From: Escherichia coli
Lineage (GTDB): Bacteria > Pseudomonadota > Gammaproteobacteria > Enterobacterales > Enterobacteriaceae
Length of the DNA: 64,000 bases
Assembly: GCF_003334785.1 (NCBI RefSeq)
Contig: NZ_QOWV01000005.1
Strand: one strand, 5' to 3'
Below are positions 1 through 703 of this stretch, piece by piece. Both the position numbers and the translations under genes were made by a program. The notes under the pieces are model-generated. The model did not search any database. It saw only the letters and a program-made list of their open reading frames with translations, and was not told where the DNA came from. Each line of letters begins with the position of its first letter. The first letter of the stretch is position 1.

Positions 1-340
1 ACCGAGAAAGACACTGAAGTTCAAAACACCGAAAGAGATAATTGAAAGGGGTGTTGCATTGACAGATTGAATCTACAGTAGCCTTTTTTAATATTTCATT
101 CTCCATTTCAATGCGTTGTAGCTTTTTCCTCAGCTTACGTATTTCGATTTGTTCTGGTGTTATCGGAGAGGCTTTTGGTGTTTTGCCCTGACGCTCATCA
201 CGCAGTTGTTTGACCCATCTTGTCATTGTGGAAAGGCCAACATCCATAGCTTTGGCGGCATCTGCCACCGTGTATTTCTGGTCAACAACCAGTTGAGCGG
301 ATTCGCGTTTAAACTCTGCGCTAAAATTTCTTTTTTTCAT
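1..340 (-). pseudogene. IS3-family (IS911-like) transposase OrfA, N-terminal part; diverges from IS911 below ~position 78 and runs off the window
   Basis: Minus-strand translation from ATG at 338-340 gives [88 protein letters not shown]..., matching IS911 OrfA (InsN) as remembered; A-AAA-AAG frameshift heptamer present near 81-90; C-terminal tail differs from IS911. Confidence 0.6.
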
Positions 341-412
341 TGGAGCTCCTGTGTTGTTCTGAGGTGAGCATATCACCTCTGTTCAGGTGGCCAAATTCAG
401 TGTGCCACTTCA
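78..412 (-). mobile_element. IS911-like (IS3 family) left-end remnant: terminal inverted repeat plus orfA 5' region
   Basis: Reverse complement of 361-412 reads TGAAGTGGCACACTGAATTTGGCCACCTGAACAGAGGTGATATGCTCACC, the IS911 IRL as remembered; element ends with ...CA at 412. Confidence 0.6.
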
Positions 413-703
413 AGTATAAAAGCCAATACCTACTATTAAGATTATTACACTCAAAATACAACCCGTTGTCTTGAGTAATAAAGTTCGCAGGTCTTTCAGC
501 CTTTGTGGATGAGAGTGGACATGAACTTTGGGATCAATACTATAATTCCTCTCGGCAAGTTTTCGTTTATACTCTTCATGTTCAAGTTCGAAGGCCATTG
601 AATTTTCGGCAGCGATAGTTACAAATCTCTCTGCGCTGAATATTAAATACCACATGGTCTTATAAAGATTCTGCTTTTGAGGGAGCGGTCTTTCTGTATT
701 CAT
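410..703 (-). CDS. hypothetical protein, apparently C-terminally truncated by the IS911-like insertion
   Basis: 97-aa ORF whose stop codon (410-412) is the first TGA of the IS inverted repeat; no recognisable motifs. Confidence 0.3.
   Translation of the reverse strand: MNTERPLPQKQNLYKTMWYLIFSAERFVTIAAENSMAFELEHEEYKRKLAERNYSIDPKVHVHSHPQRLKDLRTLLLKTTGCILSVIILIVGIGFYT

Follow-up and report, generated by a model that had tools for sequence, protein, structure and literature searches.

The first 703 nucleotides of the window (the whole 64,000-nucleotide stretch of Escherichia coli DNA that was analysed) are interpreted, with a probability of roughly 90%, as a layered insertion sequence (IS) scar that closes off a six-gene defence cassette on its downstream side, and in which the sixth gene (gene 6) was truncated by an IS911 that was itself cut by an IS30. 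The damage is of an ordinary mobile-element kind, and the IS scar is already annotated piecewise in RefSeq; the new points are the membership of the damaged gene in a family that is conserved but unstudied, and a correction due to its annotation. The features on which this reading is based are as follows.

1–77, plus strand: right end of IS30, nt 1145–1221 of the 1221-bp element; 100% identical to the complete IS30 of strain 163
78–412, minus strand: IS911 nt 1–335, comprising the left inverted repeat (IRL), the leader and orfA to 6 nt beyond the frameshift motif; 98.8% identical over 335 nt to a full-length copy
78–340, minus strand: orfA', with 88 IS911 OrfA codons and then 28 more codons antisense in IS30, outside the window; from translation
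83–89, minus strand: A-AAA-AAG programmed -1 frameshift motif of IS911; read from the sequence
377–412, minus strand: IS911 IRL, about 36 bp, with its 5'-TG tip at 412–411; exact single match of the first 27 nt, and start of the alignment to the full-length copy
410–412, minus strand: TGA, serving as the stop of the truncated gene and as the first three bases of the IS911 IRL; from the sequence
410–703, minus strand: 5' 58% of gene 6 (codons 1–97 of 168), predicted to encode the cytoplasmic helical N-terminal domain and the first membrane helix; from alignment to 168-aa homologues, hydropathy and an AlphaFold model
704–791, minus strand: 88-bp spacer between res and gene 6, with a strong hairpin (765 to 725) and a conserved AAGAG/GAG ribosome-binding region; from folding and sequence comparison
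792–3662, minus strand: Res, type III restriction subunit, 956 aa, intact; PADLOC REase_III, 2119 bits
3665–5293, minus strand: Mod, type III methyltransferase, 542 aa, intact; PADLOC MTase_III, E = 5e-291
5303–11555, minus strand: ietHAS module of three genes; PADLOC
5303–7690, minus strand: IetS S8 protease; PADLOC IetS, 1206 bits
7700–8680, minus strand: IetA AAA ATPase; PADLOC IetA, E = 4e-105
8706–11555, minus strand: IetH, a DrmD-like SNF2 helicase; PADLOC DrmD, E = 4e-201

The defence cassette and the loss of the 3' part of gene 6

The intact cassette would read ietH (SNF2), ietA, ietS, mod, res and gene 6. All five genes upstream of gene 6 are full length in the window: the adjacent Mod and Res genes form a putative type III restriction-modification (R-M) system, with Res having the same length (956 aa) in all orthologous cassettes, and the three genes before them, in one operon, are assigned by PADLOC as a DrmD-like SNF2 helicase, IetA and IetS. 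The ietHAS system was reported in 2026 as a three-gene anti-phage system, in a paper whose text holds 0 occurrences of the term type III and in which the helicase residues mutated were Walker A K65 and DEAH D165 (PMC13069673). The SNF2 helicase of the window carries its Walker A lysine at K65 and its DEAH aspartate at D165 when counted on the RefSeq 949-aa start, and because this numbering coincides with that in PMC13069673, the published helicase, and with it the tested system, probably corresponds to the protein of the window or a very close orthologue.

The suggestion in the original prediction that the small open reading frame might have been a sixth gene of the operon agrees well with comparison across genera. 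An intact gene 6 with SNF2-IetA-IetS-Mod-Res upstream is found in Salmonella, Cronobacter, Pectobacterium and Pantoea, and Kosakonia carries a nonsense allele in the same position. In all five genera the gene is sixth in the cassette, with the same position, strand and spacing (about 85 bp) after res, and the genes beyond it differ by genus (an AraC regulator, integrase fragments or an integrase). The predicted distance of 88 bp from res is likewise exact, with the res frame ending at 792, the small frame starting at 703 and the gap spanning 704–791. The hairpin in this spacer (window 725–765; -29.6 kcal/mol for the 96-nt spacer, z = -3.9) has no U-tract and is retained at the same place despite sequence change in Salmonella, Cronobacter, Pantoea, Pectobacterium and Kosakonia, with two-sided changes in 5 of 18 pairs. 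Through processing, stabilisation or attenuation, the hairpin may set the expression of gene 6 relative to res. A scan of the minus strand of the res–gene 6 interval gave no promoter and no U-tract terminator, and an Rfam search over window positions 1–1000 gave no hits, so that neither the IS911 frameshift region nor the intergenic hairpin matches a curated RNA family. Co-transcription of the R gene and gene 6 is favoured, at the type I and type III loci examined in enterobacteria, by their spacing, by their common strand and by the hairpin leaving no space behind it for a promoter.

The original prediction also held that the open reading frame is truncated at its 3' end, and searches for homologues of the 97-aa product strongly support this. 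Among 5.8 billion proteins, 168-aa homologues were found that are 67–82% identical over residues 1–97 and continue for 71 more residues, and they occur alongside the same R-M cassette; the remainder is untraceable in E. coli. The full-length genes show dN/dS values of 0.09–0.28 in both halves, indicating purifying selection. A profile search of 1.84 billion cluster representatives returned 86 relatives, most of them 160–170 aa long and aligned over their whole length. Among 35 aligned members, G116, W122, L128, G137, E142, F149 and G156 are nearly invariant, all of them past residue 97, and the conserved block of the family reads SW(A/S)TLFxLG ... LxEL ... F ... G. An HExxH metalloprotease motif (e.g., LHELIH), present in some distant members, was considered and rejected as a family feature, the E alone being conserved.

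The AlphaFold model of the 168-aa protein is confident and all-helical (pLDDT 90), with long helices at 65–97, 108–128 and 140–165, and hydropathy together with the model predicts membrane helices at approximately 79–97, 108–128 and 140–165. The gene 6 product is therefore modelled as a 168-aa inner-membrane protein with a cytoplasmic helical N-terminal domain of about 78 residues and three membrane helices. Searches with this protein returned a best Pfam E value of 0.21, a lone 16-bit CPBP match in NCBIfam that lies far under the family cut-off, no match in PADLOC and, in PHROGs, a 97-position self-family only. Foldseek comparison of the model gave E >= 1 for all hits in the PDB, with no solved structural relative, and uncharacterised relatives only in AFDB50. 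No match to the full-length protein was obtained by tblastn against plasmids and INPHARED phage genomes, nor by a scan of viral contigs. For the locus scan, the 35-sequence alignment was too diverse, and a narrower alignment led to 4 genome loci; several metagenomic relatives lie on contigs too short for context.

The loss of the native 3' end had been attributed to the insertion of the IS. The part of this claim that stands is that 71 codons are gone at the IS junction; the part that does not is simple insertion. The missing C-terminal 71 residues left no trace in a tblastn search of the 64-kb window and four E. coli flanking loci. Insertion of IS911 typically leaves a direct target duplication of 3–4 bp. 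Strain 163, which has kept both ends of IS911, shows ACT on one flank and CAA on the other, with no target duplication, and the far end of the element abuts a 5'-truncated hsdR-like pseudogene. The missing duplication and the missing 3' fragment argue that the 3' end of gene 6 was not lost by simple insertion but would have gone through a deletion or recombination associated with the IS. An intact copy of the allele was found in no E. coli genome, and the pre-insertion sequence was deduced from the 82%-identical Salmonella genes.

A second E. coli lineage, known from draft assemblies (GCA_027554645.1, locus L010 6290–7540), carries a complete 1251-bp IS911 variant at the position equivalent to window 412. 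This variant is 94% identical to IS911 overall and approximately 90% identical to the copy in the window over the first 335 nt. The two junctions lie 1 nt apart, with TATACT followed by TGAAGTGGCACAC in the window vs. TATAC followed by TGAAGTGGTTTAC in the second lineage, where the open reading frame reads four codons into the IS (..FYTEVVY*) to give 101 aa. The TGA stop supplied by the IS tip is thus incidental, its effect depending on frame. The right end of the variant is joined to the first 76 nt of qatA, a gene located 10 kb away in TW10722.

Because the second lineage has a different IS911 isoform and a junction shifted by 1 nt, the history of the site may involve two insertions or an IS replacement; an independent insertion, an inverted-repeat-targeted replacement and a 1-nt slip are each possible. 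That gene 6 was hit twice at one position, by an independent IS911-family insertion in each of the two E. coli lineages (at a hot spot or by inverted-repeat targeting), is a serious possibility that is judged to fall a little short of even odds. The 1-nt difference between the junctions fits such a history, as do the IS copies themselves, which are only about 90% identical and differ from 9 nt off the tip onward, too close to the end for ectopic gene conversion. However, the 3' part of gene 6 is missing in both lineages, the abutment of the second IS on the first 76 nt of qatA fits a deletion from a TW10722-like ancestor, and a 1-nt slip in TT could yield the offset.

Neighbourhoods of gene 6 relatives and a possible role

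The relatives of gene 6 outside the ietHAS cassettes are listed below with their identity to the 168-aa protein and their surroundings.

P0020: 41%; 59 bp after hsdR in an hsdM-hsdS-hsdR operon
Citrobacter homologue: 61%; after type I hsdR
E. coli E9 paralogue, 165 aa, intact: 50%; 55 bp after type I hsdR, with a similar copy in 32 complete E. coli genomes
P0025: 32%; adjoins a Shedu nuclease
P0028: 29%; adjoins an AbiU2 HEPN gene and an XhoI-type R-M system
P0037: 25%; phage-like contig
P0036: 23%; adjoins a TumE-like gene
Haliea homologue: 27%; among metabolic genes

The E9 paralogue is encoded at locus L027 9296–9793 in an operon of the order hsdM-hsdS-DUF4268-hsdR, and 31 other complete E. 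coli genomes are arranged likewise. Operons of this type lie in an island beside a tRNA-Leu gene and are followed by a phosphorothioate-dependent restriction enzyme and a P4-type integrase. Additionally, a frameshifted paralogue of gene 6 was seen in one Citrobacter assembly.

One account of these neighbourhoods places gene 6 outside the R-M/ietHAS cassette, as backbone or independent cargo that is proximal to the integrase in tRNA-associated islands and beside which R-M systems are swapped; this account is credible, although the odds are considered to lean against it. The intact paralogue behind type I hsdR in 32 E. coli genomes fits it, as does the comparison of neighbouring genes: the P4-type integrase beside the Pectobacterium type III cassette shares 72% identity with the one beside the E. 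coli type I operon, while Res of type III and HsdR of type I show no relationship beyond the helicase core. The distant members beside Shedu, AbiU2 with XhoI and a TumE-like gene, in a phage-like contig and among metabolic genes are also in keeping with an island gene. In contrast, at the type I and type III loci examined in enterobacteria the gene shares the strand of the R gene and follows it by 55–88 bp, with no room for a promoter of its own past the intergenic hairpin, and in Salmonella gene 6 accompanies the cassette where no integrase follows.

Tentatively, the gene 6 protein could be either an unrecognised accessory of restriction enzymes or a stand-alone membrane defence effector, encoded directly after R-subunit genes in type I as well as type III systems; such a role is regarded as doubtful at present. 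The best guess for its function, a membrane-anchored partner or effector linked to restriction-based defence, is offered with equally low confidence. If it were true, lineages including O104:H4, 55989 and 042 would carry a natural knock-out of gene 6, providing a ready comparison for R-M/ietHAS defence.

The gene 6 remnant and the nested IS elements

The original prediction correctly placed the stop codon of the minus-strand frame 410–703 within the IS, since the frame comprises 97 codons and its TGA at 412–410 forms the first three bases of the terminal repeat. The terminal 5'-TGA of IS911 is in frame and translation therefore stops at once. The remnant still has its start codon and ribosome-binding site and encodes the N-terminal domain in full plus one membrane helix; it lacks helices 2 and 3 and all seven of the nearly invariant residues, and by stopping at residue 97 it falls outside the 160–170 aa length, the three helices and the conserved block that define the family. 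With two of three membrane helices and all seven invariant residues gone, the 97-aa product is most likely a non-functional remnant.

Over its first 1.5 kb the window matches E. coli TW10722 (NZ_CP035841.1) at 100% identity and 60 other complete genomes, O104:H4 outbreak strains among them, at 99.9%. The arrangement is shared by 61 complete E. coli genomes, among which are O104:H4 strains, 55989 and 042. Decay of the allele is seen elsewhere, with frameshifted variants of 54 aa and 68 aa, the latter on 44 contigs. Between E. coli and Salmonella the dN/dS is elevated at 0.40, a figure that has few substitutions behind it. A 44-nt relic of gene 6 (window 437–480, in the region of the first membrane helix) recurs in about 194 further complete E. 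coli genomes with 100% identity, where it is unannotated and adjoins IS5 pseudogenes in an integrase-bearing island (e.g., locus L024 4001–4044, strain SCEC020026); it probably represents all that is left of the same cassette after cassette loss.

That the 97-aa frame is instead a complete, functional small gene merely abutting the IS is very improbable. RefSeq annotates the product (WP_001091149.1) as a complete hypothetical protein, the PHROG family phrog_32029 has 97 positions, and most of the 66 complete E. coli carriers share one identical sequence. Against this, orthologues in at least 5 genera continue for 71 conserved codons under purifying selection, the stop codon lies inside an IS terminal repeat, the most conserved residues of the family are all missing and frameshifted variants of the remnant circulate, which together largely refute the idea. 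The match of phrog_32029 to residues 1–97 of the 168-aa protein is exact (E = 4e-53), and the family appears to have been built from the IS-truncated E. coli form.

The first 27 nt of the IS911 IRL, 5'-TGAAGTGGCACACTGAATTTGGCCACC read from 412 on the minus strand, match the window exactly once, at 412–386, where 0 matches are expected from shuffled sequences. From 412 to 78 the window is 98.8% identical over 335 nt to a full-length copy that RefSeq labels IS3-like element IS911 family transposase, the copy at locus L009 in strain ECamp52 having served as reference, and the match ends exactly at 78. Both orfA, with its ATG at 340–338 on the minus strand, and the A6G -1 frameshift site at 89–83 are present. 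Consequently, the original description of an IS911-like left-end remnant, with an IRL ending at 412, an orfA start at 338–340, an A-AAA-AAG motif and similarity ending near 78, holds at each of these points. RefSeq labels the orfA remnant as IS3 family transposase, incomplete, missing C-terminus. The ECamp52 copy (L009 1673–1975), otherwise full-length, has 5 A's rather than 6 at the frameshift site, and its orfA frame therefore shifts without ribosomal slippage; RefSeq still gives this copy a programmed frameshift.

No IS911 sequence past nt 335, and thus neither orfB nor the right inverted repeat (IRR), was found in the window or in the 12 kb leftward of it in TW10722, and the window therefore holds an IS911 remnant rather than an element. 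The similarity to IS911 stops at 78 because window positions 1–77 are the right end of an IS30. The transposase frame of this IS30 ends on the plus strand at window position 70, the point where RefSeq ends an IS30-like element IS30 family transposase, incomplete. Its assignment is given by the 3' end of the transposase gene and by the 26-bp terminal inverted repeat, which begins 5'-TGTAGATTCAAT and is present at 52–77 as the right repeat TGTAGATTCAATCTGTCAATGCAACA; the element runs on leftward past the start of the window.

The complete nest is preserved in strain 163, where IS911 nt 1–335 are followed by a complete 1221-bp IS30, 429 nt of IS911, a group II intron of about 2.27 kb and the last 487 nt of IS911 with the right repeat. 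The IS911 pieces past IS30 lie at L007 4444–4016 and 1745–1259, and orfB and the IRR are both present there, split by IS30 and the intron. A 2-bp target duplication is typical of IS30, and in strain 163 GT on the plus strand, corresponding to IS911 nt 334–335, is found on both sides of the IS30. A complete IS30 with its 2-bp duplication and an IS911 that resumes beyond it indicate that the IS911 was interrupted and not internally deleted. The IS911 was thus complete before IS30 interrupted it, in a nested insertion that is neither an internal deletion nor a hybrid. The IS30 site lies five bases past the slippery site, so that orfA is severed from orfB. The alternative put forward in the original prediction, a chimeric or internally deleted IS911, drew on the abrupt end of similarity at 78 and on the missing orfB and IRR in the genome of the window, but it is refuted by the 100% match of positions 1–77 to the IS30 right end and by the complete IS30 of strain 163, with its 2-bp duplication and with IS911 from nt 334 onward on its far side.

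Further erosion of the nest is seen in other strains. In TW10722, IS30 nt 241–1221 remain, beside an IS629 fragment whose intron is of the kind found in the IS911 of strain 163, and in strain TW10573 the IS30 is reduced to 40 nt beside another IS629/IS1203-type end. The group II intron (ltrA) is of the same type in IS911 orfB of strain 163 (L007 1746–4015) and in the IS629 copy of TW10722 (L001 approximately 8040–10300), which suggests homing to the transposase genes of the IS3 family. TW10722 also has, at L001 1610–1648, an isolated left repeat like that of IS911 (39 nt, 92% identical); it lies 10.4 kb left of the start of the window, just upstream of qatA, and faces the IS911 stump of the window. 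Two inward-facing IS911-type ends therefore bracket the Qat system, a SLATT gene and the IS pile.

Order of events and comparison with known systems

Combined, these observations suggest a history of four steps. An IS911 would first have come to lie after codon 97 of gene 6, in the orientation of the operon, in an ancestor of the E. coli carriers, an arrangement directly visible in the carriers. The 71 downstream codons and the sequence beyond would then have been removed, their absence being observed and a deletion being the presumed cause; the most likely route is an IS911-mediated adjacent deletion or recombination between two IS911 copies. An IS30 next entered the IS911 between nt 335 and 336 with duplication of 2 bp, as displayed by strain 163, thereby separating orfA from orfB and immobilising the IS911. 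Finally, in TW10722, an IS629-type element cut away the first 240 nt of the IS30, and the remaining IS911 sequence was lost, both outcomes being visible in that genome.

The understanding of IS elements and of R-M systems is unchanged by this finding. Its consequences concern annotation, in that WP_001091149.1 and phrog_32029 represent the stump of a 168-aa gene and not a 97-aa family, making a pseudogene flag due, and further study, in that the nested IS911::IS30 dates the defence island and links it across EAEC, O104:H4 and ETEC lineages. Additionally, the analysis provides a lead to an uncharacterised membrane-protein family that recurs directly behind restriction subunits. If this family proves to be a working part of R-M systems, the truncated E. 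coli allele would be a natural mutant.

Compared with the published ietHAS system (Liu-DS4), the first three genes of the cassette are alike by PADLOC profiles and residue numbers, a likeness of profile and numbering rather than of aligned sequence; the published system has three genes, whereas in the window these form one co-oriented block with mod, res and gene 6. With IS911 the window shares the terminal 5'-TG, the sequence of the 36-bp IRL, the coding sequence of orfA and the A6G motif (98.8% over nt 1–335), but its copy is only the first 27% of the 1250-bp element, without orfB (the DDE transposase), the IRR or the 3-bp target duplication, and is therefore dead; its A-AAA-AAG motif is now useless because IS30 lies 5 nt downstream and orfB is gone. 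The IS30 of the window is 100% alike over its 77 nt, a stretch that takes in the right inverted repeat and the last part of the transposase gene, and differs in that only these 77 nt are inside the window and that its first 240 nt were lost to an IS629-type element in the genome of the window (TW10722). As in other IS-mediated truncations with a stop at the IS end, an in-frame stop in the terminal repeat follows right after the junction and the short open reading frame is called as a normal gene, and the case described here is no different in kind.
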